Positions 18,411 to 41,129 of a stretch of 46,701 bases of DNA are shown piece after piece. The stretch comes from a virus (lineage: Duplodnaviria > Heunggongvirae > Uroviricota > Caudoviricetes). The position numbers and the translations under genes are program-made. The notes beneath the pieces are model-generated. The model ran no database searches. It was not told the origin of the DNA and was given only the letters and a program-made list of their open reading frames with translations. Position 1 is the stretch's first letter. Each line of letters starts with the position of its first letter. The stretch lies in IMG/VR virus record IMGVR_UViG_3300045988_115807, one strand, 5' to 3'.

Positions 18411-19376
18411 TTAATTATCAGTAGATTGTTCCTCTAGTAACAACTCAATTCTGCTTAGTATTTCTTTAGATATTTTTCGGCTATCAATTTTTATAGTTAC
18501 AAAATTACCTTTATATCTAGCCGTGATCCCTTCCCCATATTTTTTCTCGTCTTTTGTTTTTTCCTCGTCGCCAACCAGAACAGAGTCAGATAATATTTGT
18601 ATAATCCGTGAAGCTTCTAAATCCTCGCCGTTTTTTTTAATTGCCAGAAGATGATGAGCAGCATTGCTCATGGCAGCCATGTTTTTTTTGTAGACCTTAA
18701 ACAAAGAATCTCCAGCACGAGCTGACAGTTCTCCTGGATGATTGAAGATAGCTAATATATCTTTTGGTAGACCAGCTGTATTAATACAGCGAGTGATAAT
18801 ATTTCTGTCTATATTTTCAGCCTCGGCTAATGCTTTAACGTTACCATCAAAGTCATTTAGCTTGCGTAAGTATCTCTTTCCTCTTTCGTATGCACTAATA
18901 GGCCTATAATCGTTACCAATTTGGGATAACCAATGCATCTGTTCATCGTCGAGATCACCTATTAAGACGCGATAGTCACATCCTGTTAATATCGCTGCTT
19001 TTCTTCTACGTGAGCCGTCAGCGACTTCAACGACTCCAGACACTTTTCTGGCGAAAGCTGGATTTTGTTGTCCAGACGTTAGAAAAGATGGGATTAAATC
19101 GGCTAGAGAGGATTCATTTAATAAATCTTGATCGCGTTCATTACCTAGCCATACCATTGTTGCCATTTCAACTTTATCTGCGGGAATTGTCTCTAACTTA
19201 AAGTTAACATTACGTCCGCATACTGGCAAAGTTATGCTGTTACCGGTTAATGAACTCAGTTGACGTTTTAAATCACCAACCATAGGTGATACGGGCTGAT
19301 GTTCAGGGGCATGATGATTATTACTCATAATGCGATTAATATCTGGAGCATTTTTTAGAAGAGAGCGCTGTTTCAT
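18411..19376 (-). CDS. sopB: partition protein SopB (ParB-like centromere-binding protein)
   Basis: ...ITLPVCGRNVNFKLE...WLGNERDQDLLNE...LIPSFLTSGQQNPAFARKVSGVVEVADGSRRRKAA...GNDYRPISAYERGKRY... closely parallels F-plasmid SopB from memory. Confidence 0.9.
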   Translation of the reverse strand: MKQRSLLKNAPDINRIMSNNHHAPEHQPVSPMVGDLKRQLSSLTGNSITLPVCGRNVNFKLETIPADKVEMATMVWLGNERDQDLLNESSLADLIPSFLTSGQQNPAFARKVSGVVEVADGSRRRKAAILTGCDYRVLIGDLDDEQMHWLSQIGNDYRPISAYERGKRYLRKLNDFDGNVKALAEAENIDRNIITRCINTAGLPKDILAIFNHPGELSARAGDSLFKVYKKNMAAMSNAAHHLLAIKKNGEDLEASRIIQILSDSVLVGDEEKTKDEKKYGEGITARYKGNFVTIKIDSRKISKEILSRIELLLEEQSTDN

Positions 19377-20542
19377 TATTCGTTCTCCCAGCGAGGTTTT
19401 ATTAGATCATCAAAAATTTCTCGGCAAACAGGGTCCCATATAGAAACAGCATTTCTCCATGCATTCAATGTTGAACGTTGGTTTGCTGCTTGTTCAAATA
19501 CTGTTCTCATTTTTATCTGGCCTTTACCTACTTCATCGGTAACGCGTACAACCTGACGTAATACCATTGATCCCCATGTATTTCTTATTTGTTCTTCCAT
19601 CCATCGTGATTGATTCCCTGTAGTGAGACTATATTTAGTCAGAAGTAAGCGAACGGTTGGCTCAAATCCACCTAGGTCAACGCTTTCCAATAGATCGAGA
19701 AGCATTGTGAAAAACTGTAGAACAGAAGCGTAATCAAATAATTCTGCAGGTGTAGCAACAACAATAACGTCAGCGGCACAAACAACGTTAATGGTTCCTG
19801 TACCGAGGTTCGGAGCACTATCTATAACGATAACATCGTAGTTATCCCAAACTGATTCAATAGCTGCGCGCAGCATAAGGTGTGGAGGATGAGGCAATTT
19901 ACCCTGAGCATGATATTGCATGAGATCTGTTTCTATACGATGTAAAGCTAGGCAGCTAGGGATAATGTCTAGCCCAGGCCAACATGTTGGCTTTATAGCA
20001 TATTCAGCGTTATCGCGTTCTCCTAAGTAAAATGGCAGTAAAGTATCCTCGGCATGGATATGTAAATCAGGAACATAACCGTGATACATAGAGGCCGTGC
20101 CTTGAGGATCGTTACCTTCAACCAAAAGAACACGATGACCTTGTAATGCTAACCATTGAGCTTGATGTACCGCAGACGATGTTTTATAAACGCCGCCTTT
20201 GTGTGACATAACGGCAAGCACAACAGGGTTTTTATCTTGTGGTCGTTGGTTTGGGTTGCCAAAAACTGCTCGCATACTGTTGATTTGATCTATGGTATAA
20301 CCAGCACGACGTTCAATTCTTCCTCTCATTTCAAAGTCAGGTGCAGGTAAACGCCCGCTCTTCTCAGCATCTCTAATTGCTTGAGGAGTTACACCAATTA
20401 AATCTGCTACTTCAGTTATACCCCATCGGCGGGTGATACGCCGAGCTTCAGGACTATCATCACCGAATTGAGCGATAGCAATTGCTTGGGTCATTTCTTG
20501 ACCTCTCGTAACACAATCTTGCAATAACTTTTTCAAAGACAT
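19376..20542 (-). CDS. sopA: partition ATPase SopA (ParA, Walker-type)
   Basis: ...AIAIAQFGDDSPEARRITRRW...HKGGVYKTS...LLVEGNDPQGTASMYHGYVPDLHIHAEDTLLPFYLGE...IDSAPNLG... near-colinear with F SopA from memory. Confidence 0.95.
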   Translation of the reverse strand: MSLKKLLQDCVTRGQEMTQAIAIAQFGDDSPEARRITRRWGITEVADLIGVTPQAIRDAEKSGRLPAPDFEMRGRIERRAGYTIDQINSMRAVFGNPNQRPQDKNPVVLAVMSHKGGVYKTSSAVHQAQWLALQGHRVLLVEGNDPQGTASMYHGYVPDLHIHAEDTLLPFYLGERDNAEYAIKPTCWPGLDIIPSCLALHRIETDLMQYHAQGKLPHPPHLMLRAAIESVWDNYDVIVIDSAPNLGTGTINVVCAADVIVVATPAELFDYASVLQFFTMLLDLLESVDLGGFEPTVRLLLTKYSLTTGNQSRWMEEQIRNTWGSMVLRQVVRVTDEVGKGQIKMRTVFEQAANQRSTLNAWRNAVSIWDPVCREIFDDLIKPRWENE

Positions 20543-20650
20543 ACTGTCATCTCCAGCTTGTAACTTTGCTTAATAATTAAATCTTTGCTTATTTCTAGCA
20601 AATTTGCATGAAAAAGGCAAAGCAAAACGAAAAACGCAAAGTGGAATATT
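20543..20650 (-). promoter_or_regulatory. sopAB promoter/operator region with CTTTGC / GCAAAG repeats
   Basis: Sense strand upstream of sopA contains ACTTTGCG, TTTTGCTTTGCC and inverted GCAAAG copies, resembling the SopA-binding CTTTGC repeats of the F sopAB promoter. Confidence 0.45.
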
Positions 20651-20825
20651 TGAGCTAAATCATCTTTTGTTCCCCTCCCGAAATGCATAAAACGAACAAC
20701 GATATAATCATAACTAATTGATATTTATTATCTTTTTTTAAAGAAAGGAAATCATGTAAAACTAGGGAAACATGATAAGAATCATCAATGAGATACGTTT
20801 TCTCTATTAGTTCTCCCAATCTTAC

Positions 20826-21160
20826 CAATACAAGAACATAAACAGAGAACATAAAAATAAAGTAATGACACAAACACAATAAAGAACATAAATAAAGAAT
20901 TAGAACCAATGCTAAATAAAGCAGTACACAAAATGAGAACATTACACCAAATGAGAACATTAATCAAGAACATAACGAAACATAATTCCCCATTATACGC
21001 GCGTATAATGGGGAATTATGTGCTGATTTTCAGAACAAAGTCAAGGAACAAATTTTAACGTTCCGATATTGTGTTTTTATTTATTATCCGTTATTGTGTT
21101 CTGTTAGTTTGTGGCTAAGTTAACGCGTTATTAGTTATCTTATTCTCAAATTGTGTTACG
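20826..21160. repeat. AT-rich tos-like region: AGAACA(T) direct repeats left of, and inverted TGTTCT/TTGTGTT repeats right of, the telomere palindrome
   Basis: CAAGAACATA, GAGAACATA, AAGAACATAAAT, GAGAACATTA (x2), CAAGAACATAACG on the left; CAGAACAAAG, TATTGTGTT (x2), TGTGTTCTG on the right. Confidence 0.6.
20980..21021. other. telRL-like telomere resolution site (42-bp perfect palindrome, telO core)
   Basis: ACATAATTCCCCATTATACGCGCGTATAATGGGGAATTATGT is perfectly self-complementary; centre between 21000 and 21001; central CCATTATACGCGCGTATAATGG matches my recollection of the N15 telO core; 171 bp upstream of telN. Confidence 0.85.
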
Positions 21161-21191
21161 ATAATCCGAGCGGATAATCAGGAGAGGAAAG

Positions 21192-23093
21192 ATGAGCAAA
21201 GTAAAAATCGGTGAATTAATAAACTCACTTGTTAGCGATGTTGAGTCAATAGATAACTCTGACCGTCCTCAAGGGGAGAAAACAAAAAAAATAAAGGCTG
21301 TTGCATTAAAATTTAAAAATGCATTATTTAATGACAAGCGAAAGTTTAGGGGGAAAGGATTAGAAAAAAGAATTACAGCCAACACATTCAATGCCTATAT
21401 GAGCAGGGCCAGAAAACGGTTTGATGATAAACTTCATCATAGCTTTGAAAAAAATATACATCGCCTATCTGAAAAGTATCCTTTATATAATGAGGAGCTA
21501 TTGTCATGGCTTTCTCTACCTGCTGCCGATATTCGCCAGAGAATGTCAGCTTTACAGGCAAAATTAAAATTAATTCTCCCTCTATCAGAAGATTTATCTA
21601 ATATCAGAATTGGCGATAACAAAAGTCATAATAAGTTATTGAAATTATCAAATAAATATAAAGAGTGGCAATTCGCCATTTCTGATTTAACTAGCGATAA
21701 CTGGAAAGATAAGCGCGATTATTTATATAAATTACTACAGCAAGGATCTGCCTTACTTGAGGAGTTGAATCAGCTAAAAGTTAACCATGAGATTCTCTAT
21801 CATCTTCAACTAAGCCCTGCCGAACGTGCATCTATCCAGCAACGATGGGCGGACGTTCTGCACAATAAGAAACGTAACGTGGTGGTCATTGATTACCCTA
21901 AATATATGCAAGCTATTTACGATATTATAAATAGCCCTGCTACATTAAATAATCTAAACACTCGTTCAGGTATGGCTCCTTTGGCATTTGCACTTGCTGC
22001 ATTGTCAGGAAGACGAATGATTGAGATTATGTATCAAGGTACATTTACTGTTTCTGGTAAGTATACCGTTGATTTTTTAGGCCAAGCTAAAAAAAGAACT
22101 TCTGATAATATAACCAGAAAAATATATACATTATGCGAAGCAAAAACATTTGTTTATTTAATAAATGTACTTCGCTCATGCCCAGCAGCATCTGATTTTG
22201 ATGATGTCGTTAAAGGTTATGGAGATAACGACACACGCTCTGAAAACGGACGTATTAATGCCATATTAGCAAAGGCTTTTAACCCGTGGGTTAAATCATT
22301 TTTTAAAGATGACCGCCGTGTTTATAAAGATAGTCGTGCTATTTATGCCCGTATTGCGTATGAAATGTTTTTCCGCGTAGATCCTCGTTGGAAAAACGTA
22401 GATGAAGATGTTTTCTTTATGGAAATTTTAGGCCATGACGATGAAAACACTCAATTACACTATAAGCAATTCAAGCTGGCCAACTTCTCAAAGACATGGA
22501 GGCCAAATACTGGAAACGAAAATACCAGGCTGGAAGCATTGCAGCAGCTTGATGACGAAATGCCTGGATTCGCCAGAGGAGATGCCGGGGTTCGTCTGCA
22601 TAACACAGTTAAGCAGCTGGTAGAGCAGGACCCCTCTATAAAAATCACGAACAGCACTCTAAGAGCGTTCAAATTTAGCCCAACAATGATTAGTCGATAC
22701 CTGGAATTTGCTGCTGATGCTCTGGGGCAATTTGTTGGCGAAAACGGACAATGGCAACTGAAAATAGATACTCCAGAAATCGTTATGCCTGACGAAGAAG
22801 AACTGGAAGCAATACCTGAACTGGCGGATGAATTATCAGAGGATGACGATCTGGATGACGACGAAATTGAGATAGAGGAAGAGGAAGAGGAAGAGGAAGA
22901 TAGCGTAGAAGAACAGCAACCGCCTGCACCTTCTTCGCCTGTATCTAAGCCGGTATTTAAGCCGGTGAGAAATATTGGTGATGGCTCATACGTTGTTGAG
23001 TTTCATTATAATGGCCAGAATTATGCGTGGTCCGGCAGTGCAAACAGCCCCATGTCAGCAATGCAGTTAGCATGGCTGACATATTTCGGTTAA
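21192..23093 (+). CDS. telN: protelomerase TelN (telomere resolvase)
   Basis: 633 aa; MSKVKIGELINSLVSDVESIDNSDRPQGEKTKKIKA...RSGMAPLAFALAALSGRRMIEIM...HDDENTQLHYKQFKLANF... matches N15 TelN from memory; acidic Glu/Asp-rich C-terminal stretch. Confidence 0.95.
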   Translation: MSKVKIGELINSLVSDVESIDNSDRPQGEKTKKIKAVALKFKNALFNDKRKFRGKGLEKRITANTFNAYMSRARKRFDDKLHHSFEKNIHRLSEKYPLYNEELLSWLSLPAADIRQRMSALQAKLKLILPLSEDLSNIRIGDNKSHNKLLKLSNKYKEWQFAISDLTSDNWKDKRDYLYKLLQQGSALLEELNQLKVNHEILYHLQLSPAERASIQQRWADVLHNKKRNVVVIDYPKYMQAIYDIINSPATLNNLNTRSGMAPLAFALAALSGRRMIEIMYQGTFTVSGKYTVDFLGQAKKRTSDNITRKIYTLCEAKTFVYLINVLRSCPAASDFDDVVKGYGDNDTRSENGRINAILAKAFNPWVKSFFKDDRRVYKDSRAIYARIAYEMFFRVDPRWKNVDEDVFFMEILGHDDENTQLHYKQFKLANFSKTWRPNTGNENTRLEALQQLDDEMPGFARGDAGVRLHNTVKQLVEQDPSIKITNSTLRAFKFSPTMISRYLEFAADALGQFVGENGQWQLKIDTPEIVMPDEEELEAIPELADELSEDDDLDDDEIEIEEEEEEEEDSVEEQQPPAPSSPVSKPVFKPVRNIGDGSYVVEFHYNGQNYAWSGSANSPMSAMQLAWLTYFG

Positions 23094-23135: not shown

Positions 23136-23264
23136 GACCTACCTCGCCTGCCCCCTGCAAAGGGCAGAAGTAACGGAGGAAACGCGGCTGCAACCACAGA
23201 CATCACCGCCCCGACTGCGAGGCTTCCCTTCTCTAAGAAGGGCATAAATTCGGGCTGGTCAACC

Positions 23265-24047
23265 CTATTTATTGGTGATTTCTGCTGGCTTTAGCTGCGC
23301 GGATAACTGCTCAAGTTTTTGAACTGCCAGTTCAAAATGCGCGGGTAACGCCTTTTCCAGATCAGAGTTAATATCGGTGATGGGTAAATCACCACACGAC
23401 ATACTCCGCCTACCCCCACGAACAACATCACGCAACAACTCTCGTTCATACGTGCGCATGTTCCCCAATGCCGACTCAGCAGCCGTCAAAATCCGGCGCA
23501 GTTCTGCCGTAATTGCTGGCAAATCATCAACCGTTATGGGGTTCGGGGATGGATTACGACACGCCCGACGCAAAGCTAACCATACACCGCTAATCCAGGC
23601 ATTTCGGTACTGAAAACTTTGTGCTATATCGTTAATCAGCCCTCGCAGATACTCTTTCTGCCTCCAGTTCAACGGCTCCGCTGCTCGCATTGGCTCAGGC
23701 TCGATGTAAACGTACTCTCCATTTTTGCGAATAGAGGGCAAGACTTCGTTCGTTACCCATTTGCGAAACCGCCAAGCTGTTGTGCCTTGCTTCACCGCGT
23801 CACGGCAGCGGAGGATCAGGGTGTATAGACCTGACTCTGAAATAATATTTAGCTTTTGCTCTCCGCCAGGGGTGTAACTTAAAGTTACACCCTTTTCATC
23901 CTCATCCAGAGACATTAGCGCCTTCCGGGAATTAACGAGTCTTAAAGCATCACATACATCCTTAGCCACAAACCACGGCTCACCGTTAATCATCACTACA
24001 CGAACCTGATGCTCTTCCTGAAAGGAAAAGACTGCTAACGCGCTCAT
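23265..24047 (-). CDS. Bro-N domain antirepressor-like protein
   Basis: N-terminal ...VRVVMINGEPWFVAKDVCDALRLVNSRKALMSLDEDEKG... is typical of Bro-N/AntA phage antirepressor domains. Confidence 0.8.
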   Translation of the reverse strand: MSALAVFSFQEEHQVRVVMINGEPWFVAKDVCDALRLVNSRKALMSLDEDEKGVTLSYTPGGEQKLNIISESGLYTLILRCRDAVKQGTTAWRFRKWVTNEVLPSIRKNGEYVYIEPEPMRAAEPLNWRQKEYLRGLINDIAQSFQYRNAWISGVWLALRRACRNPSPNPITVDDLPAITAELRRILTAAESALGNMRTYERELLRDVVRGGRRSMSCGDLPITDINSDLEKALPAHFELAVQKLEQLSAQLKPAEITNK

Positions 24048-24277
24048 TCAGCCTCCTTATCGCGCAGCAAGTGCGACGAGAGAGACGCAGAATATCCCTG
24101 TGCTTCATGCGTTAACTCACACGCAATCTGCAGAAGTTTTCCAGCCTCTGAGAGGTAAATCGACGCCTCACAACTGGAGACTGTCCGATGGGCTGATGAT
24201 ACGAGCGCATAGACCTGAGCCAGACGTTCATCCAACGATTCCAGCAGGCCAACAGTGTTCATTTTTACCTGATTCAT
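24044..24277 (-). CDS. hypothetical protein (77 aa), second gene of the antirepressor operon
   Basis: ATGA overlap with the downstream antirepressor and with the upstream small ORF, indicating translational coupling. Confidence 0.6.
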   Translation of the reverse strand: MNQVKMNTVGLLESLDERLAQVYALVSSAHRTVSSCEASIYLSEAGKLLQIACELTHEAQGYSASLSSHLLRDKEAE

Positions 24278-24438
24278 GCAGCCACCTCGCGCACCGGAAT
24301 ACGGGCAGACAATACCAGGACAAACCGGCTGGCGAACTGGCGACGAGCTTCCCGTTCAGATGACGCGATAGTGGAAAGATGATGAATGTGGGACTTTTTG
24401 TCTGTGCGAACGACTGCCGCAAATTTGAATTTGAACAT
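24274..24438 (-). CDS. small ORF (54 aa), first gene of the antirepressor operon, icd-like position
   Basis: Hand-translated: MFKFKFAAVVRTDKKSHIHHLSTIASSEREARRQFASRFVLVLSARIPVREVAA*; GGAG about 12 nt upstream; stop overlaps the next start. Below the ORF-track size cutoff. Confidence 0.45.
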   Translation of the reverse strand: MFKFKFAAVVRTDKKSHIHHLSTIASSEREARRQFASRFVLVLSARIPVREVAA

Positions 24439-24700
24439 GGTATGCACTCCGTTTTATTGGTCGTGCTACCACCAGAGTTGCGAATCTCTTTATTGGTGGT
24501 AGCCCAGGCGGGGTTCGCAATACCGGTAAACGAAGAAACCGGCCCGACCGAAGTCAGCCCCACCTGAGCCACCATAATTCGGATATGCGCAGGTCTATAC
24601 ACACAAAAAAACACGCTGGCGCGTGTTGTGCGCTTCGTTTTGCCAGGATTGCGAAGTCCCGACTGCGGGATTTACCGCAGCGAGGTGACTTTACCTCCAA
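24439..24700 (-). ncRNA. structured leader of the antirepressor operon; candidate C4/CA-type processed regulatory RNA
   Basis: Minus strand has TTGACG-18nt-TAAAGT promoter-like hexamers near 24700-24670, a hairpin plus U7 (ACACGCGCCAGCGTGTTTTTTT) near 24630-24606, and a 10-bp stem GCTACCACCA / TGGTGGTAGC just upstream of the small ORF's RBS. Confidence 0.3.
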
Positions 24701-24737
24701 AACGACGCACACGTCAATAATTTGCAAAGACATTTTA

Positions 24738-24769
24738 CCCCGTGACCAGTCACGGGGACAGGTGTTTTT
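24738..24769. terminator. hairpin between the antirepressor leader and the lipoprotein gene
   Basis: CCCCGTGACCAGTCACGGGG perfect 20-bp palindrome, followed on the plus strand by ACAGGTGTTTTTA. Confidence 0.35.
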
Positions 24770-24818
24770 ATAGTTTGCTTGAACAAACGATCAGAACATG
24801 AACAATGTTATTGTTCCG

Positions 24819-25631
24819 TTATAAGAAAGCCTCACGCGAACGGAACACCCACTCTAGCTGTACTGGATAAATTTCTCCCGTTTTAATATTTATTAGGCGC
24901 GCGGCTAATAACTCACCCATAAAAACCTGAGTTTTATGGCTCATATCTGACGGGTTAAAAATAGTAGGTGATGTTATATCAATATGATTACTGCTTAACC
25001 CATTTATCTTTGCTAAATATTCAATTCTAAGGTCTTTTACATTAACATCTTTTGGTATTTGTCCTTTTATATCAATATCTGCCCATATTGTTTCAGGGTT
25101 CCCTTCATTTATTTGTGTACTACCAAAGATAATTTCGGCACCTAAAGTATTTAACACTTCTACATCAGCAGATATTCCAAAAGCATTAGCACCAACATAG
25201 CTTCCATGCTTTGTTATTTCAGAGGAATCGACATGAAAACCATACCATCCAGACATATCTCGAGATGTTATCACGCTATCACTACCGCTATTCTCAACAA
25301 AATCACGGTTAAGATATGTTCCTGAGTATGTGATACTTCTAGGGATAGACAAACCTTGAGATGTTAAAACGTTGTTGTATGGCGCGTATGTTAATGAGTG
25401 AACGACATATCCACGCCATGAACCATCATCTATCTTTGATGCAATAATTCTATTAAATTCCTTACCTGTGAGTATTTTGCTGCTAAAATCACCAACAGAG
25501 TTGATAGGTACTCTTTTTTCTTTTTCGAATTTATACTCAACGTCCGTTGATGCCTTATTATCATATTGATAAGTGCATCCAGATAATAACAAGATAGAGA
25601 GTAATAAAGCTGTTGTTTTTTTGTTACGCAT
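24819..25631 (-). CDS. hypothetical lipoprotein (270 aa), AT-rich moron
   Basis: MRNKKTTALLLSILLLSGCTYQ... has a signal peptide with lipobox LSGC; the gene is visibly more AT-rich than its flanks, with an AT-rich upstream region and a hairpin downstream. Confidence 0.8.
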   Translation of the reverse strand: MRNKKTTALLLSILLLSGCTYQYDNKASTDVEYKFEKEKRVPINSVGDFSSKILTGKEFNRIIASKIDDGSWRGYVVHSLTYAPYNNVLTSQGLSIPRSITYSGTYLNRDFVENSGSDSVITSRDMSGWYGFHVDSSEITKHGSYVGANAFGISADVEVLNTLGAEIIFGSTQINEGNPETIWADIDIKGQIPKDVNVKDLRIEYLAKINGLSSNHIDITSPTIFNPSDMSHKTQVFMGELLAARLINIKTGEIYPVQLEWVFRSREAFL

Positions 25632-25720
25632 AATATTAACTTAACCTATTTGATTAATAATATGTTATTCCATTAAATAAAATATGCCGAGAACGGTTTA
25701 ACTTGAACAGTCATCACTAT

Positions 25721-26449: not shown

Positions 26450-26641
26450 TTACTCCCCGTTCACCGAAAATTCACGATAGAAACGTTTCCACATACGATA
26501 AGTCTGCGCAAATTGTTCACCACGAAACATCGCCTTCCTGGCCTTCATGTTTTCCTTGTGAGACTTTCGGTCTATGAACCAAAACCATTGATGGAACACA
26601 CAAAGCAAGAGACACAAAGATAATATCCAATCATTACCCAT
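26450..26641 (-). CDS. small hydrophobic protein (63 aa) overlapping the repA stop
   Basis: Internal ATG of ORF 26450-26758 (MGNDWILSLCLLLCVFHQWFWF...), overlapping the repA 3' end by 8 nt. Confidence 0.35.
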   Translation of the reverse strand: MGNDWILSLCLLLCVFHQWFWFIDRKSHKENMKARKAMFRGEQFAQTYRMWKRFYREFSVNGE

Positions 26642-29600
26642 AGAAAGCGCCCTGCTCTTCGTAGCTGCATGAGCTATTCCCCGTAATGTATTCACGTAAC
26701 CGCCGCAGCTCATTGCTGGAAAGGTGATCCATGAACTCTGTGAGGTACAGGGATGCAAACGTCATAGCTATGCTGGCTGATGACCATGATGACATAGTGG
26801 CCAACTCCTCACTGGAAAGCGCACTCATCGCCCAGGACTCAGGTACAGCCACTGGCAACACGGCCAAAGCCTCAGAAATTACTGAATGAGGGGCGTTTTG
26901 AACCTGCTCGTTTGTGGATCGCGTTTTATCATCCATATATATATTGAGATCCAAATCGCGATCCATTTCGATGGCTGTCTTCTCGGCTTTACGCGTTTTT
27001 AGGGTTAGGCCATCTTTCTGACGCTGAACAAGAATATCCAGCATAAATGCCGCTGATTCAGGCTCAACAAAACGCAAGGTTGGACGCTTATCGCCGTCTC
27101 TGCCGCGACGTTTACCTGTTTTAAGGCCAAGAGAGTCGCAAATGTTTTTAAACAACGCTTCCGGCACTTTAGGCTTCCCTTTTGGCGTCATAAAACCACC
27201 AATGTGCAGAACGTTATTCAACAGGTCACGGCGTTCGGCTGTCATGAGGTTATCTCGAGCGAATTTGAGACGCTCCTGAGTCGCCTCGCCGGTCATAGTC
27301 TCAGGGTTGATACCGCAGTCGATAAAGTACTGCCGGAGAGTTGCTGATTTAAGCGCATAGAAACCGCGCGCCCCGACTTCAACAGTAGGAGTAGCTTTTA
27401 CCTTGTGATCGATTATTCCAGGGAATTTAGTTTTAAAGACATCATCAGCCTGCTCGCGAGTCATCGCGGTCACTACAAAATATTGCCACTGTCCCGCCTG
27501 ACGGTATGTGTAGGTAAAATTGATGGCTGCTTCTTCCCGGTCGTAACGACGAGCTGTTACCTCATCTAAAAGCATTGTTTCATAGCGGCGAACTTTGTCT
27601 CGAGCACCATCGAAATAGAATTTCAGCGTGCCTTCTTCAACCGGTAGTTTCAGTTCGTTTTCAATATCCCAGCGGACAAGTTTTGCCTGTTCTTCAAGCG
27701 TCAGCGCGCGTTTTTTTAGCAGTTCTTCACGCTCTGATTCTTGTGGTGTTTCTGTATTGAGGTGCAGATCCAGTGTCTGTTCCCACACAATATCCCGCGC
27801 TTCTTTACGCAGATCTTTACCGATATCATTCGCAGCATAATCGGTGGCCAGCGGTGATACCTTATAACCGTCGCTGTGCATGATGCAGATCATGTTGCTG
27901 GCGTAGTCGTTACGCGCAGTCGCTTCAATTGCGGCTGCTTTAATTTTCATCCTGGTAAAGTCGGTATTGGCCACCCCCATTGATATACGGTCGCCATCGA
28001 AAACGACATCCGTAAGTTCACCGTTCATACCTGCGGTAGCAAGCAATGCCTGGGCGAATGCTCGTTCTATTTTTTGCGGGTCAGTTTCACGTTTTGCACG
28101 AGCTTTATCAAAGCCGATAATAAATTCTTTTGCTGTACGGTCGCGGCGTAGCATTTGCACTGCATCACTGGGTACAACTTCACCACAGAACATGCCGAAA
28201 TGACGGTCAAAATGTTTTTGCTCAATCGACACGCCGGATGAAATAGACGGGCTATAAATCAGGCCGTCGTATTTTTTGACCATCTTTTTCGGTTGATTGG
28301 TAAATGCTTCAACTTCTGGCTCTGGTTTGTTTTTCTGGTTTACACACAGAAATTTCTTACCAGGAAAATGCATTCTCAGGGTGGCTGTCACATCTTCTGC
28401 AAAGGTGGAGCTGTCGGTGGCCAACATGATTTTTTCGCCATCCGATACAGCTTTCACCACCTCGGTCATGATGCGATCTTTTTCTGTATAAAAAACCCGG
28501 ATTGGCTCACCTGTTTCGCGGTTGCGAACATCAACAGGTAATTCAATTACGTGGATCTGCAGCCATGCCGGTAAACCTAGTTCTTCACGGCGTTTCATAG
28601 CCAGTTCAGCCAGGTCAACCAGCAGATCGTTCGCATCAGCATCCACCATGATTGGGTGTTGTTCCGTTCTGGCCAGCGCGTCAATTAGCGTATTGAATAC
28701 AGCCACCGGGTTTTCCATAGCCCGACCGGAAAGAACGGCACGTAGCCCTTGTGTGGCCTCGTCAAAGCCAAAATAGTCGTGCTGGCGCATCAACGGTTGC
28801 CAGCAGTTTTTAACAATCGAGTTTATGCAGATGGTCAGTTTACTGGCGTATGGAGCCATTTCCTGATAGCCAGGGTCCTGATAGTGCAGGATATCGGTTT
28901 TTACACCTTTTCCTTCTGTCATCATTTCCCACAGGCCACCAATAAGGGAAACACGGTGAGCAACAGAGATACCACGTTCTGAGCTATGCATTAAAGGTCG
29001 TAACAATCCAGTAGATTTGCCGGAACCCATACCAGCACGAACGATGACTATCCCCTGTAGTGATTGCACATACTTCAGGACGTCATCGGTCATTACCGAA
29101 GTTTCAAAACGCTTATAGGTGATATGTTGAGGACGTTTATTGGGATCAGTTATGCGTTCGCTGAATGAGCGCGGAGCCTGGGCAATACGGCACTTTTTAT
29201 TCAGGCGACGGGCAATGTGGTCTTTTACCGTAGCGCGATAGATATTTTCCAGCCCCATTTCACGCAGAACGATGCAGAACATGTTAAATAAGTCTGACGG
29301 ACTGTTAGGAACCGGACAGGTTAGCATGCCAATATCCACCGCTCTCAGCAGCTCTTTGGCAAAAGTACGACGGTTATCCCGCTTAATTGTCTTCAGGCGG
29401 TTGAGCGTCAGAGATAGCAAATCAGTGCCGGTTTTCAGGCGGTTTGCAGTTGCAAACAGTTGACGTGCTGTTTCACGAAGTCCACGCAGTTTGTGCAGGT
29501 CGTTGAAGTCACTGCACTCCATTTGCGGATCGTCTTCAAAAGTTGGATAGACGCAGCGGACATCGTTGAATTTCGATAAGATTTCATAGCCAGTCCGCAG

Positions 29601-30629
29601 GCCGGTATTCCCTTTTCCTTCTGTGGCTGATTTCCGGTCATTATCCAGTGCGCAGGTGATTTTTGCCGCCGGGTACATGTTTACCAGTTGTTCCACAACA
29701 TGAACCATGTTATTAGCGGATACAGCGACAACCACAGCGTCAAAGCGTTTATCTTTTTTCGTGGCAAGCCAGATGGATGCACCAGTAGCAAAACCTTCTG
29801 TAACAGCGATGTTTTGCGCCCCTTTTAGCTCACCGATAACAAAGCAGGCACCGACGAAATCGCCGCTGGTTACGGCGCTGGTCTGGTATTTTCCACCTTG
29901 TTTGTCGATTCGCTGCCAACCCACAATACGACCATCGTAACGACCGTCCAGGTGAGCCAGAGGGATAGCCATATACGTGGTTGGCCCCCTGCTCCATTTT
30001 GCGCTGTCGTGACTGGTCACGCGACGCACATCACACGAATTAAAAACGTCACGAATACCTTTTTTAATCGCATATGGCCATGAGCCGTCTTCTGCAGGAG
30101 CATGTTCCCACGCGCTGTGGAATGCCAGCCATCCCAGCAAACGTTCATGGTCCATTTGGTTGTTTTTCAGGTCATTAATTCGTTTTTGTTCTTCACGGCG
30201 ACGACGTGCTTCGGCCTGACGTTCTATTCTTGCCCGTTCTTCTTCCGGTTGTGCGACCACGGTCGCATTATTCCGTTGTTGCTCACGGCGATATTCAGAA
30301 AACAGGAAGGAGAAACCGCTCCATGAGCCAGCATCGCTGCCTTTATGGACGAAGTTAATGAACGGGTAATCAATCCCTTTGCTGTGTTCCAGCCGGGAGT
30401 AAATTTCTACGCGTCCTTTGAGGCTCTTTTCGAGAGCTTCTGGAGATGTTTTATTGTATGAAGAGTAACGCTCAACACCCCCGCGAGGGTTGAGTTGGAT
30501 GTTGTCGGAACAGGCAGACCAGTTGATACCAGCCATCTGTGCCAGCTCGGTTAGTTCATCCCGTGCTGCTTCAATTAGCGAGAACGGATCGCTGCCAAAG
30601 CGATCCGCATAGAAATCGTTTAATGTCAT
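26634..30629 (-). CDS. repA: replication protein RepA (primase-helicase, N15 RepA-like)
   Basis: 1331-aa ORF; contains Walker-A-like GMGSGKST; size and position next to cB match N15 repA, whose 3' part is reported to contain the replication origin. Confidence 0.9.
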   Translation of the reverse strand: MTLNDFYADRFGSDPFSLIEAARDELTELAQMAGINWSACSDNIQLNPRGGVERYSSYNKTSPEALEKSLKGRVEIYSRLEHSKGIDYPFINFVHKGSDAGSWSGFSFLFSEYRREQQRNNATVVAQPEEERARIERQAEARRRREEQKRINDLKNNQMDHERLLGWLAFHSAWEHAPAEDGSWPYAIKKGIRDVFNSCDVRRVTSHDSAKWSRGPTTYMAIPLAHLDGRYDGRIVGWQRIDKQGGKYQTSAVTSGDFVGACFVIGELKGAQNIAVTEGFATGASIWLATKKDKRFDAVVVAVSANNMVHVVEQLVNMYPAAKITCALDNDRKSATEGKGNTGLRTGYEILSKFNDVRCVYPTFEDDPQMECSDFNDLHKLRGLRETARQLFATANRLKTGTDLLSLTLNRLKTIKRDNRRTFAKELLRAVDIGMLTCPVPNSPSDLFNMFCIVLREMGLENIYRATVKDHIARRLNKKCRIAQAPRSFSERITDPNKRPQHITYKRFETSVMTDDVLKYVQSLQGIVIVRAGMGSGKSTGLLRPLMHSSERGISVAHRVSLIGGLWEMMTEGKGVKTDILHYQDPGYQEMAPYASKLTICINSIVKNCWQPLMRQHDYFGFDEATQGLRAVLSGRAMENPVAVFNTLIDALARTEQHPIMVDADANDLLVDLAELAMKRREELGLPAWLQIHVIELPVDVRNRETGEPIRVFYTEKDRIMTEVVKAVSDGEKIMLATDSSTFAEDVTATLRMHFPGKKFLCVNQKNKPEPEVEAFTNQPKKMVKKYDGLIYSPSISSGVSIEQKHFDRHFGMFCGEVVPSDAVQMLRRDRTAKEFIIGFDKARAKRETDPQKIERAFAQALLATAGMNGELTDVVFDGDRISMGVANTDFTRMKIKAAAIEATARNDYASNMICIMHSDGYKVSPLATDYAANDIGKDLRKEARDIVWEQTLDLHLNTETPQESEREELLKKRALTLEEQAKLVRWDIENELKLPVEEGTLKFYFDGARDKVRRYETMLLDEVTARRYDREEAAINFTYTYRQAGQWQYFVVTAMTREQADDVFKTKFPGIIDHKVKATPTVEVGARGFYALKSATLRQYFIDCGINPETMTGEATQERLKFARDNLMTAERRDLLNNVLHIGGFMTPKGKPKVPEALFKNICDSLGLKTGKRRGRDGDKRPTLRFVEPESAAFMLDILVQRQKDGLTLKTRKAEKTAIEMDRDLDLNIYMDDKTRSTNEQVQNAPHSVISEALAVLPVAVPESWAMSALSSEELATMSSWSSASIAMTFASLYLTEFMDHLSSNELRRLREYITGNSSCSYEEQGAFYG
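30250..30266. repeat. sopC-like centromere palindrome (copy within the repA 5' region, 17/18 match)
   Basis: GTGCGACCACGGTCGCA(T); same dyad as the other four copies. Confidence 0.55.
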
Positions 30630-30874: not shown

Positions 30875-31471
30875 TCATCTACCCTCAACCATGAATGATT
30901 TGATCGTTCCGACTATTTGGTGAACAAATTCAAGATCGCTTTTCCTGAAGATGGCGCGTTGTGAATTTGTTCCGTCCAGATAGTAATTTTCATCATCAAA
31001 ACGGGCCAGGCGCTGGATGGTGATATTTCCTGCAGTATCACGAACCAGAACATCCTCGCCGGGAACCAGTTCCAGCGCAGAATCGACCAGGAGAAAATCG
31101 CCTGGCTGATAGTTTCCCTGCGCCAGATTGCTGATAGTTAACGCATAAACAGTATTGCGCTGGCTGATGAATGGCAGGAATCGCTCAGTATTTGGAACCT
31201 GTCCTGGCTTCCACTCTTCATCAGGTCCACTTTCAGTTGTGCCAATAACAGGAATGCGATCAGGGTCATATTCTGTCCCATACAGCACCCAATGCACTGG
31301 CTTGCGTAAGCACTTAGCCAGGGCAATACCTATCTCCAGTGACGGCATTACGTCGCCACGTTCTAAGTTTTGGACGCCTGCAATAGAGATATCGACAGCC
31401 TCAGCAACTTCTCGCAACGTCAGCTTCATCTCTAAACGGCGTGCTTTCAGTCGTTCGCCTCGTGTTTTCAT
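30875..31471 (-). CDS. cB: prophage repressor CB (HTH N-terminus, CI/LexA-like C-terminal domain)
   Basis: MKTRGERLKARRLEMKLTLREVAEAVDISIAGVQNLERGDVMPS... HTH_XRE-type N-terminus; divergent from cro; position as N15 cB. Confidence 0.85.
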   Translation of the reverse strand: MKTRGERLKARRLEMKLTLREVAEAVDISIAGVQNLERGDVMPSLEIGIALAKCLRKPVHWVLYGTEYDPDRIPVIGTTESGPDEEWKPGQVPNTERFLPFISQRNTVYALTISNLAQGNYQPGDFLLVDSALELVPGEDVLVRDTAGNITIQRLARFDDENYYLDGTNSQRAIFRKSDLEFVHQIVGTIKSFMVEGR

Positions 31472-36231: not shown

Positions 36232-36519
36232 TCAATAGACGGCATTAATATTAATCGTTGCACCGCATGCTTGGGCATATTTTGATAAAGTTTTCATGCT
36301 TGCCCCTAAAGGATTGCTTTCCAGGCGGCTGATAGCTGACGGGCGCAATCCCATTCGTTCAGCCAGAGCTGACTTCGTTAAACCTGCTCTTTCCCTCATT
36401 TCGTATAACATTTCGACCATCTCCAGCTCTTTATCGGCCTCTTCATATCCTTTGATGGCTTCTGGAGTGTTGAGAAGTTTTTCTTTTACTTCGTTAAACG
36501 GGATGCCTTTCGCTTTCAT
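36232..36519 (-). CDS. HTH (XRE-family) antitoxin, HigA-like
   Basis: ...RERAGLTKSALAERMGLRPSAISRLESN... HTH; start overlaps the toxin stop by 1 nt (TGATG). Confidence 0.7.
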   Translation of the reverse strand: MKAKGIPFNEVKEKLLNTPEAIKGYEEADKELEMVEMLYEMRERAGLTKSALAERMGLRPSAISRLESNPLGASMKTLSKYAQACGATININAVY

Positions 36520-36830
36520 CAGTTCATCTCCTTCAGGCGAGTTCTGGCGATTTCGATAGCCTTCACCGGTGTTTTCTGTGTCTTTTTTACAAATGCATGC
36601 AATAGATAAATTTCGTTACCAGTCGCGTAGGCGTACAGCGTTCTTGCGATGTTTTTATCCCCTACTCGTAGTTCAAAAAGCCCTCCACCTATTACACGGC
36701 TATGGGGCATCTTCAGTTTGTTGCCTTCCTTCTCCAGTCGCTCAATTAATCTGGTCATGCGACCTCGCAAATCATCTGGTAGTTCAAGCAGTTCATCCAG
36801 TGCTGCAGGGTGGGTTATCACGTTAAACAT
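36519..36830 (-). CDS. RelE/ParE-superfamily toxin, HigB/Gp49-like
   Basis: 103 aa; toxin-first operon order with a downstream HTH antitoxin, typical of HigBA / Gp49-like modules. Confidence 0.7.
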   Translation of the reverse strand: MFNVITHPAALDELLELPDDLRGRMTRLIERLEKEGNKLKMPHSRVIGGGLFELRVGDKNIARTLYAYATGNEIYLLHAFVKKTQKTPVKAIEIARTRLKEMN

Positions 36831-36888
36831 ATTATAGCCTCCATAGCCATAAAATACACCAAAACAAGAAAAAAGCGCAAATTAAAAA

Positions 36889-36906
36889 TTTCACTAAAAA
36901 GTGAAA
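36889..36906. promoter_or_regulatory. inverted repeat in the toxin-antitoxin promoter region (candidate operator)
   Basis: TTTCAC-TAAAAA-GTGAAA, about 60 bp upstream of the toxin start. Confidence 0.35.
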
Positions 36907-36995
36907 AATAACACTGGATGTGTTCGTTTGGCAGAGTTACAGTTCGTGTCATTGAGGGGCAATAACCCACTAACTATATGAATTTGGAGGATATT

Positions 36996-37217
36996 ATGAA
37001 TTATCAAGGTAACGAAAAAATGCGCGACGACGTTGCGGAGATAGCTAACGAACTGTATGAGTTGTGGCAGAAGGTTGAACGTTTCGAAAAGGAATATGGT
37101 TTCAACAGTACCAACCTGGCAGACCGACTGGCTGGTCGCTTAGTTGGGACTATGGGGCCAAAACTGGCTGAGTTGAACCGCTTTATGGCTGATGTTGATT
37201 TCCAGTTTCAAGATTGA
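36996..37217 (+). CDS. hypothetical protein (73 aa)
   Basis: GGAGGA RBS; MNYQGNEKMRDDVAEIANELYELWQKVERFEKEYG... Confidence 0.5.
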   Translation: MNYQGNEKMRDDVAEIANELYELWQKVERFEKEYGFNSTNLADRLAGRLVGTMGPKLAELNRFMADVDFQFQD

Positions 37218-37230
37218 TTAGAGAGGCGTT

Positions 37231-37458
37231 ATGAATATTAATGAAATTCGTGGAAATATGACTGAAGCGGCCCTGAGTGTGGAATGTGTTATGCGTGGAT
37301 ACCCACGCATTTCCCTGAAAGAGTTAAGCGAAGCCTGTTTTTTGAGTCAAGCTGCCGTTGAATTTATCATCGAACAGATGATCTGTTTTGGGGTTGCAAA
37401 GCGTAGCGGGTCTGGTCGATATTCTTTGACCGATGAATATAAGCAGGCAACTTTCTAA
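37231..37458 (+). CDS. hypothetical protein (75 aa)
   Basis: GAGAGG RBS; ORF followed by a centromere palindrome and a terminator. Confidence 0.5.
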   Translation: MNINEIRGNMTEAALSVECVMRGYPRISLKELSEACFLSQAAVEFIIEQMICFGVAKRSGSGRYSLTDEYKQATF

Positions 37459-37463
37459 AAACT

Positions 37464-37481
37464 GTGCGACCACGGTCGCAC
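37464..37481. repeat. sopC-like centromere palindrome
   Basis: GTGCGACCACGGTCGCAC (extends to CTGTGCGACCACGGTCGCACAG). Confidence 0.65.
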
Positions 37482-37566
37482 AGCACAAAAACGAAAAAGC
37501 TTGGCAAAATTACGGTTTTTAGTTATTGTTTTGTTAAGTTGGGTTTTTTGTACCCAACAGCCAACA

Positions 37567-37592
37567 AGCCGCCTTTATGGCGGTTTTTTTGT
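37567..37592 (+). terminator. rho-independent terminator
   Basis: AGCCGCCTTTATGGCGGTT followed by TTTTTTG. Confidence 0.6.
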
Positions 37593-37725
37593 GCCTGAAA
37601 AGTGGGCGCAGGACAAGTTGCAGCTTGTCCTGCGGTCAACCCATGCCAGAGCTATAGGCTGAACCTAAAGCCCACCCGCGATGCGCATCGCCGGGTTAGC
37701 TTACCCAGGCAAAAAAATAATAGCT

Positions 37726-38802
37726 ATGTTCAAAACCACTAATATTCATGGCGCGCAACTCGTTTGCGCAGATTCTCTGCAATTTATCAAAACCATCCCT
37801 GATAACTCGGTCAATTTGATTGCAACAGACCCACCATACTTCGGCGTAAAGGCTAACGCATGGGATAACCAGTGGGATAGCGATGCTGACTTTTTGGGGT
37901 GGATTGATGAATTTTTGGCAGAATTTTGGCGGATATTGGCCCCTAATGGCAGCCTGTATATGTTTACCGGCTCTCGCCTTGCGTCAAAAATTGAATTATT
38001 AACTCGCGACCGTTTCAATGTTCTGAACCATATCATTTGGGCTAAACCCAGTGGTATGTGGCGCGGTTGTCATAAAGAAAGTTTAAGGGCTTATTTTCCT
38101 GCCACTGAAAGAATATTATTTGCAGAGCATTACGGCGCGTCAGGTTATGCTAAAGGTCAGTCAGGTTATGCTTCAAAATGTGCAGATTTAAGAAAAAATA
38201 TTTTTTCTCCACTAATTGATGCTTTTTCGCTGGCTCGCCGTCAGTTAGATATATCAGCCGCAGACATTAATTCAGCAACAGGAAAGCAGATGTGTTCGCA
38301 CTGGTTTTCTTATTCGCAGTGGCGGCTTCCATCATTAAGTGATTTTAATAAACTATGCGAATTATTTCGCAGGAAGGCAGATTCACTCGGTGTCCCGTGT
38401 CCATATCCTTTTAATGTTGATTATTCAGAACATGAAAAGCGTTATAGCGATCTGAAATTGCGTTATGAGGAAGTAAAGAAGCAGTATGATGATTTGAAGG
38501 CTCAGTATGAAAATTTGCGCCGCCCATTTCATGTTACTGCTGATGTACCTTATACCGATGTATGGGAGTTTCCTCCTGTGCAATATTATCCTGGCAAGCA
38601 CCCATGTGAAAAACCTGCAGCGATGATGGAACATATTATAAAAAGTAGTTCCCGCCCCGGAGATATCGTTGCCGATTTCTTTATGGGATCAGGCTCTACT
38701 ATTAAAGCCGCGCTGAAGTTAGGTCGTCAGGCAATCGGTATTGAGATTGAGGGTGAACGTTATCTTCAGACAGTTGATGAAGTGAAAAAGTTATTTGAGT
38801 AA
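37726..38802 (+). CDS. DNA methyltransferase (DPPY motif; N6-adenine or N4-cytosine, beta-class)
   Basis: LIATDPPYF (motif IV) near the N-terminus and FFMGSGST (motif I) near the C-terminus; start could instead be 37681. Confidence 0.8.
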   Translation: MFKTTNIHGAQLVCADSLQFIKTIPDNSVNLIATDPPYFGVKANAWDNQWDSDADFLGWIDEFLAEFWRILAPNGSLYMFTGSRLASKIELLTRDRFNVLNHIIWAKPSGMWRGCHKESLRAYFPATERILFAEHYGASGYAKGQSGYASKCADLRKNIFSPLIDAFSLARRQLDISAADINSATGKQMCSHWFSYSQWRLPSLSDFNKLCELFRRKADSLGVPCPYPFNVDYSEHEKRYSDLKLRYEEVKKQYDDLKAQYENLRRPFHVTADVPYTDVWEFPPVQYYPGKHPCEKPAAMMEHIIKSSSRPGDIVADFFMGSGSTIKAALKLGRQAIGIEIEGERYLQTVDEVKKLFE

Positions 38803-38897
38803 CTGAAGAATATATTCCCCTGCCGTTTTTGATGGGGTTATTTCTCGCCGTATAGTTTCCAAGCCGAAACCTCAGCAACTATTGCGAGGTAAGAGAT

Positions 38898-39170
38898 ATG
38901 AAGATGGATGAACGATACAGCAGCGCATCTTATGGTAGTGCTGGTCTTACTGCGTTCTTTGCCAGCCTGTCATTGCAGGATTGGGGCTTCATTATCGGTG
39001 TCGCGTTCAGCATTATCCTCGGTGTACTTACATACCGGCTCAATAAACGCGAGCAGATGAAGCGCACGAAGATATTGCAGGACATATTGGATAAAACTGA
39101 TGCCAATAATATTTCCGCCACGGCGATGGTTATTGGTGAATTGGGAAAGAGAGCACCGAAGGAAATATGA
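38898..39170 (+). CDS. holin (dual-start MKM motif)
   Basis: MKMDERY... dual-start holin/antiholin pattern; hydrophobic segments; immediately upstream of the endolysin. Confidence 0.7.
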
Positions 39171-39667
39171 TGCAGTCATCATTACGCAAAGCTGTCGCAA
39201 CTGCTATTGGTGGCGGGGCTATTGCCATAGCATCTGTGCTCATCTCTGGTCCGAGCGGCAACGATGGTCTGGAAGGTGTGAGACATAACCCCTACAAAGA
39301 CATCGTTGGTGTATGGACTGTATGTTACGGGCATACAGGAAAAGACATTATGCTCGGTAAAACGTATACCGAAGCAGAATGCAAAGCTCTCCTGAATAAA
39401 GACCTTGCTACTGTCGCCAGACAAATTAACCCGTACATCAAAGTCGATATACCGGAAACAACGCGTGGTGCTCTTTACTCGTTCGTTTACAACGTGGGTG
39501 CAGGCAATTTCAGAACATCGACACTTCTTCGCAAAATCAACCAGGGCGATATCAAAGGTGCATGTGATCAACTACGTCGCTGGACATATGCTGGCGGCAA
39601 GCAATGGAAAGGGCTGATGACTCGCCGTGAGATTGAGCGTGAAGTCTGTTTGTGGGGGCAGCAATGA
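39167..39667 (+). CDS. SAR endolysin (T4-type lysozyme, GH24)
   Basis: N-terminal signal-anchor-release-like segment [20 protein letters not shown] followed by lysozyme-like domain (…VCYGHTG…); start overlaps the holin stop. Confidence 0.85.
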
Positions 39668-40131
39668 GCAGAGTAACCGCAATTATTTCCGCACTGGTTA
39701 TCTGCATCATCGTCTGCCTGTCGTGGGCTGTTAATCATTACCGTGATAACGCCATCGCCTACAAAGAACAGCGTGATAAAAAAGTCAGTGAGCTGAAGCA
39801 GGCGACCGCCACCATCGCTGACATGCAGCAGCGTCAGCGTGATGTTGCTGCGCTCGATGCAAAATACACGAAGGAGTTGGCTGATGCGAAAGCTGAAAAT
39901 GATGCTCTTCGGCGCAAGCTTGATAATGGTGGTCGGGTGCTCGTCAAAGGAAAATGCTCTGTGCCATCCTCAGCCGAAACCTCCAGCGCCTCCGGCATGG
40001 GCAATGATGCCACCGTCGAACTCTCTCCAGTTGCTGGACGAAACGTTCTCGGTATCCGGGACGGAATCATCAGAGACCAGACAGCACTGAGAACGCTTCA
40101 GGAATACATCAAGACGCAATGCCCGAATTAA
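39664..40131 (+). CDS. i-spanin Rz
   Basis: [24 protein letters not shown]... N-terminal TM anchor followed by coiled-coil; position after endolysin. Confidence 0.8.
39884..40090 (+). CDS. o-spanin Rz1 (lipoprotein embedded in the +1 frame of Rz)
   Basis: [22 protein letters not shown]... lipobox VVGC followed by Pro-rich [16 protein letters not shown], like lambda Rz1. Confidence 0.7.
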
Positions 40132-40172
40132 TCCCTCTGTATCAAAAACGAACTCAATTTGTTGGATAGTGA

Positions 40173-40484
40173 ATGAAAATTTATATTGCCGGGCCAATGA
40201 CTGGATATGAGAACTTTAATCGTGACGCCTTTAATAAAGAGGCAGATCGTTTGTCACGACATGGTCACTCTGTCTTGAATCCAGCCACTTTGCCTAATGG
40301 TCTGACACAACGTGAATACATGGATATTTGCTTTGCAATGCTTCGTTGTGCTGATGCTATTTTGATGCTTCCTGGCTGGAAAGCGTCTGCTGGAGCAACT
40401 GCTGAGTATCATTACGCATACAAGATGGAGATGCCGGTATTCACTACGCTGAATTACCCGCCAGCTTGTTCCTCTGTAGCATAA
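40173..40484 (+). CDS. DUF4406 / nucleoside 2-deoxyribosyltransferase-like protein
   Basis: MKIYIAGPMTGYENFNRDAFNKEADRLSRHGHSVLNPA... N-terminal IYIAGPMTG motif is characteristic of this Rossmann-like family. Confidence 0.65.
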   Translation: MKIYIAGPMTGYENFNRDAFNKEADRLSRHGHSVLNPATLPNGLTQREYMDICFAMLRCADAILMLPGWKASAGATAEYHYAYKMEMPVFTTLNYPPACSSVA

Positions 40485-40503
40485 AAATCTCTTTGTTTCT
40501 CGT

Positions 40504-40521
40504 GTGCGACCGTGGTCGCAC
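40504..40521. repeat. sopC-like centromere palindrome
   Basis: GTGCGACCGTGGTCGCAC. Confidence 0.65.
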
Positions 40522-40722
40522 ATTAAATACCGCGCTGCATCGTCGCCGTATTTCCGCATTAACCATGACCGTAGCCCGACGGGGAACTCCTCTGCGCGAG
40601 TGTGCGGAAATAATCAAAAACGATGCACACCGGGTTTTTACCGCGCTAATGATTCGCGGGTTTGTCCCTCATGCTCGCCAGTCCTGTGCGAGGGTGGAAG
40701 AAACAGGGCATGTATTCAGGAG

Positions 40723-40740
40723 CGTGCGACCGTGGTCGCA
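40723..40740. repeat. sopC-like centromere palindrome
   Basis: GTGCGACCGTGGTCGCAC. Confidence 0.65.
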
Positions 40741-40764
40741 CGGTATCTTTGTCAGGAGGTTTTG

Positions 40765-41079
40765 ATGAAAGAGTTGCAAAAAATTAATTCAATAATGGAA
40801 AGGTTAAGTGCTCTTGAGCGTAAGCTGGACGATTGTGGAAAGCTGTGTGTTGAAAAGCAAAATGAGCTTTACCGGGAATTTTTTACAATCGTAAGTGAGC
40901 TGATGCCAATTGTTAATAACTGCCTGATGACATCCAGATTTTTTAATGTCGATGCTACTACATCCAGAAAATTTTCTGTGAAAATTCAAGAAAGGGTTTC
41001 TGGTAGTGTGACAAGAGAGATGGCTGAACAGTTGGTGGCAATGAGCAATAAAACAAAAAGAAAAAAGCATTGCTTGTAA
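40765..41079 (+). CDS. hypothetical protein (104 aa)
   Basis: AGGAGGT RBS 5 nt upstream; MKELQKINSIMERLSALERKLDDCGKL...; the upstream part of ORF 40504-41079 is judged non-coding. Confidence 0.5.
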   Translation: MKELQKINSIMERLSALERKLDDCGKLCVEKQNELYREFFTIVSELMPIVNNCLMTSRFFNVDATTSRKFSVKIQERVSGSVTREMAEQLVAMSNKTKRKKHCL

Positions 41080-41129
41080 CAGCAAATCAGCTTTCAGGGC
41101 GCGTTGACTTTCAGGTGTTGCGGCATGCA

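Follow-up and report, generated by a model that had tools for sequence, protein, structure and literature searches.

A putative telRL protelomerase target site and its telN gene in an N15-like Escherichia phage-plasmid

Introduction

Telomere-phage genomes circularize through their cohesive ends and undergo staggered cleavage of the palindrome by a protelomerase, and hairpins arise as the self-complementary overhangs so produced fold back and are joined (PMC10612081). All known protelomerases make cuts 6 bp apart, and in the native target of TelK the sequence between the scissile positions is CGCGCG (PMC3558466). The minimal telRL site of phage N15 has been defined as 56 bp (PMC3540006, PMC12624138). 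Efficient resolution in N15 needs this 56-bp site, which comprises the core and the outer L3 and R3 motifs, and the natural target of ∼310 bp includes degenerate extra copies of the L3/R3 motifs (PMC12624138). The GenBank record of N15 (AF064539.1; telRL at 24775-24830, TelN as gene 29) annotates an inverted repeat "containing cut site for prophage formation; cut at 24802/3," and that of phiKO2 (AY374448.1; TelK structure, PDB 2V6E) annotates its site as "telRL; binding site."

Here we analyze the corresponding locus in a 46,701-bp stretch of viral DNA (IMG/VR virus record IMGVR_UViG_3300045988_115807), referred to below as the window. The closest described genomes are PhiR46_1 (PV340565.1) and YDC107_1 (CP025712.1, genus Ravinvirus), which by BLAST share about 94–99% nucleotide identity with the window over most of the genome, with PhiR46_1 being 98% identical. 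The TelN proteins of these two phages are 98.7–98.9% identical to the one encoded here.

Results

A 42-bp palindrome in the window contains the telO core

The symmetric elements of the predicted site are as follows.

20980-21021: 42-bp perfect palindrome ACATAATTCCCCATTATACGCGCGTATAATGGGGAATTATGT, symmetric part of the predicted telRL, with its dyad axis between 21000 and 21001
20990-21011: 22-bp telO core CCATTATACGCGCGTATAATGG, identical in N15, phiKO2, and 37 IMG/VR stretches
20998-21003: central CGCGCG, the predicted 6-bp interval between two staggered cleavages, by analogy with TelK and the protelomerase literature
20973-21028: counterpart of the 56-bp minimal telRL of N15; the outermost 7 nt of its two sides do not complement each other

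The initial annotation had reported a perfect 42-bp palindrome at 20980-21021, and this description holds. The sequence is 100% self-complementary, with 21-nt arms and a spacer of 0, and it lies far beyond chance, since palindromes with an arm of at least 21 nt are expected ∼1e-8 times per window. The next longest perfect palindrome in the 46,701 bp is 18 bp, and no other exceeds that length. When folded as single-stranded DNA, the 56-nt region forms a perfect hairpin (−18.1 kcal/mol, z = −8).

The 22-bp core is present in one copy in the window even when 3 mismatches are allowed, and it was found in 0 of 100 shuffled sequences. All 22 of its 22 positions are identical to N15 telO, so the earlier suggestion that the central 22 bp match the N15 core proved correct; within the annotated N15 repeat, no perfect palindrome is longer than these 22 bp. 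Alignment to the N15, phiKO2, and PY54 sites, which had been proposed as a check, showed a core identical to those of N15 and phiKO2, with PY54 sharing the central 10 bp only.

The palindrome lies between a partition operon and a protelomerase gene

The genes around the palindrome are listed below.

18411-19376, minus strand: sopB, centromere-binding protein
19376-20542, minus strand: sopA, ParA-type partition ATPase, divergent from telN
21192-23093, plus strand: telN, 633-aa protelomerase, predicted catalytic tyrosine Y424 in LHYKQF
26634-30629, minus strand: repA, 1331-aa replication protein (Toprim and origin-binding helicase domains), homologue of N15 gp37

A 633-aa TelN-like open reading frame had been noted 171 bp downstream of the palindrome. 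Its ATG starts 171 nt after position 21021, which leaves a gap of 170 nt, and a Shine-Dalgarno-like motif, GGAGAGG, precedes the start. The predicted protein contains the four TelK domains in Pfam (TelK_N, muzzle, ResT/TelK catalytic, and stirrup), all above cut-offs with E-values of 1e-25 to 1e-50. Residues 1–536 align to the TelK crystal structure 2V6E (E = 1.8e-295), and GRRMIE, GQAKKR, VYKDSRAIY, GHDD, and LHYKQF are all conserved in this alignment. The assignment of residues as catalytic follows the literature. The protein is 77% identical to N15 TelN, 79% to TelK, and 43% to PY54 Tel, in agreement with the assignment of the reading frame as telN.

The gene order is sopB, sopA (divergent), the site, telN, a BRO-N gene, several small genes, and then repA. 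The site thus occupies the position of a telRL, between the partition operon and the protelomerase gene and immediately upstream of telN, with 437 nt separating it from sopA and 170 nt from telN (459 and 164 nt, respectively, in N15). A cluster of CTTTGC/GCAAAG motifs lies just upstream of sopA (20562-20640, minus strand); this cluster may be akin to the SopA operator repeats found in the sop promoter of plasmid F.

As a whole, the window is a replicon of ∼46 kb with a lambda-like cos and structural genes, sopAB, telN, repA, a repressor, Q, and lysis genes. Its gene set is complete and unbroken, and it is collinear with YDC107_1 and with plasmid p2 of Escherichia coli E1. Between telN and repA is a variable cargo region (23155-25705) with patchy matches in YDC107_1, PhiR46_1, and E1 p2. 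It includes a 270-aa open reading frame (24819-25631, minus strand) that has no Pfam match, and the corresponding region of PhiR46_1 has an annotated Spackle-like exclusion protein. Elsewhere, the window encodes a type II toxin-antitoxin pair (36232-36830, minus strand; a Gp49/HigB-like toxin followed by a helix-turn-helix antitoxin), a DNA methyltransferase (37681-38802), and a CB-type repressor with helix-turn-helix and S24 peptidase domains (30875-31471), which are ordinary accessory genes of N15-like phages.

Public assemblies of relatives end or fold back at the dyad

When a hairpin-ended molecule is read through its end, the result is an inverted duplication whose axis lies at the resolution point. 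The region 20400-21600 has matches in 33 PLSDB plasmid records. Of these, 8 run across the junction, 12 break off precisely where the palindrome begins on the left (matching rightwards only), 2 break at its right edge (matching leftwards only), and 9 end within ∼170 nt of it. Breaks placed exactly at the palindrome edges indicate an inverted duplication with its axis at the dyad. In complete E. coli genomes, the junction is crossed in 6 cases, folded back in 7, and at the end of the record in 4. The 37 IMG/VR stretches that contain the exact core comprise 13 intact junctions, 10 fold-backs of at least 99 nt, and 14 contig ends within 51 nt of the axis.

Fold-backs are found on both arms. Around the telL dyad of the 62.6-kb plasmid record pG749_3 (NZ_CP014491.1), 1300 nt are 99.9% self-complementary, and the single mismatch sits at the hairpin tip (ACGTGCGT), which identifies this record as an assembly artifact of a hairpin end. 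Plasmid p2 of E. coli E1, deposited as a 50.7-kb linear record, has a sopA-side fold-back of at least 1521 nt. The IMG/VR contig L042, whose flank is identical to that of the window, has a telN-side fold-back of 1759 nt, and YDC107_1 has a 10-kb fold-back about the same axis (36722-46701). PhiR46_1 was deposited as a linear tel-to-tel molecule with telL and telR annotated at its ends.

The TelN protein of the window is found, identical, in 103 blocks of a public gene collection. One scaffold encoding this protein, from a gut metagenome (ENA ERZ28583936 scaffold_67), starts exactly at the position equivalent to 21001. Its length of 94,358 bp is ∼2 times that of the genome, which would fit the assembly of a whole hairpin-ended molecule read as one long strand; the first 3.6 kb of this scaffold were examined. 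Across 185,579 species-representative genomes, the exact 54-nt site had no match, and the telO core had an exact match in one contig only, the 46,169-bp NZ_CALSBS010000033.1 of Pseudocitrobacter vendiensis, which is presumably another N15-like phage-plasmid.

In sum, the molecules of relatives have fold-back axes at the dyad on both arms and contigs that start at 21001, as expected of closed hairpins. These close relatives in public assemblies provide indirect evidence that the ends of the element in vivo would be at 21000/21001.

Several of these records are rearranged. The YDC107_1 "complete genome" (CP025712.1) folds back through telL, contains a frameshifted inverted copy of the telN-to-repA region, and has neither sopAB nor the tail-fibre arm. 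The missing arm is found as a ∼32-kb fold-back that opens the YDC107 chromosome record (NZ_CP025707.1, 1 to ∼32600), in which sopA appears on either side and one of the two copies carries many frameshifts. A 2025 paper on telomere phages in Sci Adv makes no statement on assembly artifacts or tel sites.

The outer left repeat is degenerate in the window and in relatives

Outside the palindrome, the window has the following repeats.

20833-20973, plus strand: left flanking repeats on the sopA side, six copies of (A)GAACAT, a tos-like extended region
20974-20982, plus strand: degenerate outer left repeat at the L3 position, AACGAAACA, a 5/9 match to the family consensus ATCAGCACA
21019-21027, plus strand: outer right repeat R3, consensus TGTGCTGAT
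21032-21157, plus strand: right flanking repeats, two GAACAA and three ATTGTGTT, including TTATTGTGTTCTG, with the presumed telN promoter region

The symmetry of the site is perfect to 21 nt from the dyad, and positions 22–24 and 26 differ between the left and right sides. Palindromes of 54 bp that are perfect throughout were found in sibling phages and close relatives (contigs L020, L031, L033, and L041). The degenerate L3 arm or a one-base variant of it is present in at least 10 independent contigs, the arm itself in L010, L011, L012, L024, L025, L040, L047, and L050 and the variant, AGCGAAACA, in L039, L051, and L053. Three of the contigs (L010, L024, and L047) are telR fold-backs with exactly the degenerate arm, which indicates that hairpins made from this arm exist in nature. 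In addition, an identical TelN protein occurs with both L3 alleles, with the consensus in L052 and with the degenerate or variant form in L050, L051, and L053. These comparisons suggest that the outermost L3 bases are not critical in vivo for the TelN of the window.

GAACA occurs around the site at a density of 9 per 400 nt, compared with a window mean of 1.2. By analogy with N15, the GAACA and TTGTGTT repeats of the flanks are probably a tos-type extended region that recruits additional TelN. Two further matches to TGTGCTGAT, at 4855 and 40347, are within coding sequence and have no palindromic context, and we judged them to be chance matches. Two minus-strand open reading frames (20655-20960 and 20785-20973) overlap the repeat region, have no annotated counterpart in N15, and are probably spurious.

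The window is a circular map with cos and telRL both joined

The cohesive-end site was located by alignment to the N15 sticky end.

41181-41192, plus strand: joined cosN GGGCGGAAGGCG, aligned to the N15 sticky end GGGCGGCGTCCG and followed by a lambda-like cosB

The 12-nt cosN differs from that of N15 at 4 positions. The surrounding region (41134-41330) is strongly lambda-like, reading GTTACG GGGCGGAAGGCG CGCGGGTTTTCGCTATTTATGAAAATTTTCCGG; the exact lambda sticky-end sequence was not found in the window because the 12-mer present here differs from it. The telRL is ∼26.5 kb from the left cos end.

An arrangement with cos at the ends, as in the N15 record, was considered and rejected, as cos is internal and the two ends of the window (46701/1) lie inside a gene for a head protease of the S49/ClpP type. 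The ends join in frame but are short by 9 nt (AGGCTCACG) that E1 p2 has and that YDC107_1 has with a single substitution. This makes the contig a circular permutation in which the join has either a small gap or an in-frame deletion. With cos and telRL both joined and the ends inside the head-protease gene, the window is a circular map.

The initial annotation had gone further and taken the intact site to mean that the phage or circular form, and not the hairpin-ended prophage, was represented. The first part stands, in that the sequence is a circular representation. The second part calls for a caveat: an assembled contig cannot tell which physical form was sampled, circular or hairpin-ended; records of the same element that are labeled "circular" include one demonstrable fold-back artifact, pG749_3.

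Discussion

The core identity, the full-length protelomerase, the synteny with N15, and the relatives that end or fold at the dyad bear out, at the level of sequence, the target-plus-enzyme pair proposed for this locus. We are highly confident that 20980-21021 is the symmetric core of the telRL of an N15-like (Ravinvirus) temperate Escherichia phage-plasmid and that 21192-23093 encodes its protelomerase.

Whether the junction itself is a product of assembly is the alternative that carries the most weight, and we consider it unlikely rather than negligible. Under this explanation, a hairpin-ended linear prophage was sampled, and telR and telL were linked through their shared 21-nt half-sites into a pseudo-circular contig. 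Neither cos nor tel lies at the ends of the window, which fall in the head-protease gene and are 9 nt short of closure; these features would fit. So would the unreliability of assemblies at this site: CP025712.1 and pG749_3, the latter labeled circular, are fold-backs, the missing arm of YDC107_1 is at the start of the YDC107 chromosome record, and the intact-junction contigs L039 and L052 combine arms that differ at positions 12–14. Asymmetric arms are, however, also found in the virion sequence of N15 itself. Virion and replicative DNA, in which telRL is genuine, is likewise present in lysogen cultures, and reads that bridge the junction are therefore expected. The junction is also traversed, in the same sopA-to-telN orientation, in no fewer than 8 plasmid records, 6 E. 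coli records, and 13 IMG/VR stretches. If the junction were nonetheless an assembly product, its two halves would remain true telomeres belonging to a TelN system, and only the proposal of an unresolved site in a circular form would be wrong.

Two other explanations concern the function of the palindrome, and we regard both as highly improbable. If its role were mainly transcriptional rather than that of a recombination target, either as an intrinsic terminator acting in both directions or as an operator bound by a dimeric regulator, its terminator-like appearance on both strands in a consensus scan and the promoter-like minus-strand site that overlaps it (21044-21015) would be explained; TelN stays bound to its site (PMC12624138), which makes a regulatory side-effect plausible. 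Yet the T-tracts are poor, no upstream gene reads into the palindrome because sopA and telN diverge from the intergenic region, and a terminator or operator accounts neither for the identity of the core to experimentally defined targets nor for molecules that end at the dyad. The site could instead be a decayed, non-functional relic with one outer repeat degenerate, given that only 5 of the 9 L3 positions agree with the consensus when sibling phages have 54-bp perfect palindromes and that the 56-bp N15 site with both outer repeats is described as required for efficient processing (PMC12624138). Against such decay, the degenerate arm or its one-base variant was found in 10 or more independent contigs, three of them with telR fold-backs; the natural telR ends in L010, L024, and L047 lessen the concern raised by the degenerate L3. 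An identical TelN is also present in the 103 blocks of the public collection, and the gene set here is complete and unbroken.

Reading the locus as a telRL with its protelomerase, we can outline how it would work from the literature on N15, phiKO2, and TelA. After infection, the genome would circularize at cos (41181-41192), and a TelN dimer would bind the palindrome. Each Tyr424 is predicted to cut one strand 3 nt from the dyad, placing the cuts 6 bp apart on either side of CGCGCG (20998-21003). The self-complementary overhangs would then fold back and be religated, leaving the prophage as a linear plasmid that is closed covalently by a hairpin at either end. The end on the sopA side, with 21000 as its last position, would be telR, and the end on the telN side, with 21001 as its first, would be telL. 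In every replication round, the same enzyme would resolve the duplicated junctions telLL and telRR.

A more tentative proposal, to which we give somewhat less than even weight, is that the telRL of this lineage is naturally asymmetric, with L3 degenerate. Both outer repeats of the telRR junction would then depart from the consensus, and each replication round would have to resolve telRR in that state. If this is the case, the TelN of the window could dispense with, or be flexible about, the stirrup/outer-repeat contact in vivo, although this contact is counted in the minimal site of N15. Such natural variation in the outer repeats could guide a study of minimal substrates for TelN-type enzymes, which are used to make closed linear DNA. 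Fixing the prophage end coordinates at 21000/21001 helps in annotating such elements and in recognizing their misassemblies, of which public records contain many; nothing new is added to the mechanism.

The system described here is already known. It is of a textbook type and belongs to a phage species that is represented in GenBank with annotated tel sites and occurs abundantly among E. coli assemblies. In PhiR46_1 and YDC107_1, the right half-site and flank are near-identical to those of the window; one half-site base differs (GGGAAA, compared with GGGGAA in the window), such that position 13 from the dyad lies in TTTC/GAAA in these two phages and in TTCC/GGAA here. The cargo between telN and repA in both also differs from that of the window. 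Both were deposited in a prophage-type form, unlike the window, and the arrangement of YDC107_1 differs as a result of fold-back misassembly.

N15 has the same 22-bp telO core, the same CGCGCG, the same sopB-sopA-telRL-telN-repA order, and similar spacing. Its perfect palindrome is only 22 bp, with asymmetric positions 12–14, compared with 42 bp in the window. Both N15 outer repeats are intact (TATCAGCACA and TGTGCTGATA), whereas the outer left repeat of the window is degenerate, and the flanks of the two are ∼70% identical. The core of phiKO2 is identical to that of the window over 24 bp, and its right arm, ATTATGTGCTGAT, is also identical; phiKO2 differs in its Klebsiella host, its 51.6-kb genome, its 50-bp annotated site, and its left-arm spacer. 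When five sequences, including that of PY54, were aligned, the window, N15, phiKO2, and an Enterobacter Ravinvirus had the core, the right arm (ATTATGTGCTGAT), and some stretches of the flanks in common. The pal site of PY54 is also a 42-bp perfect palindrome upstream of a protelomerase gene, and it has the central 10 bp (TACGCGCGTA) in common with the window. Its arms are otherwise unrelated to those described here, so the shared length of 42 bp is coincidental and does not reflect arm homology, and the sharing of only the central stretch agrees with the literature (PMC3540006).
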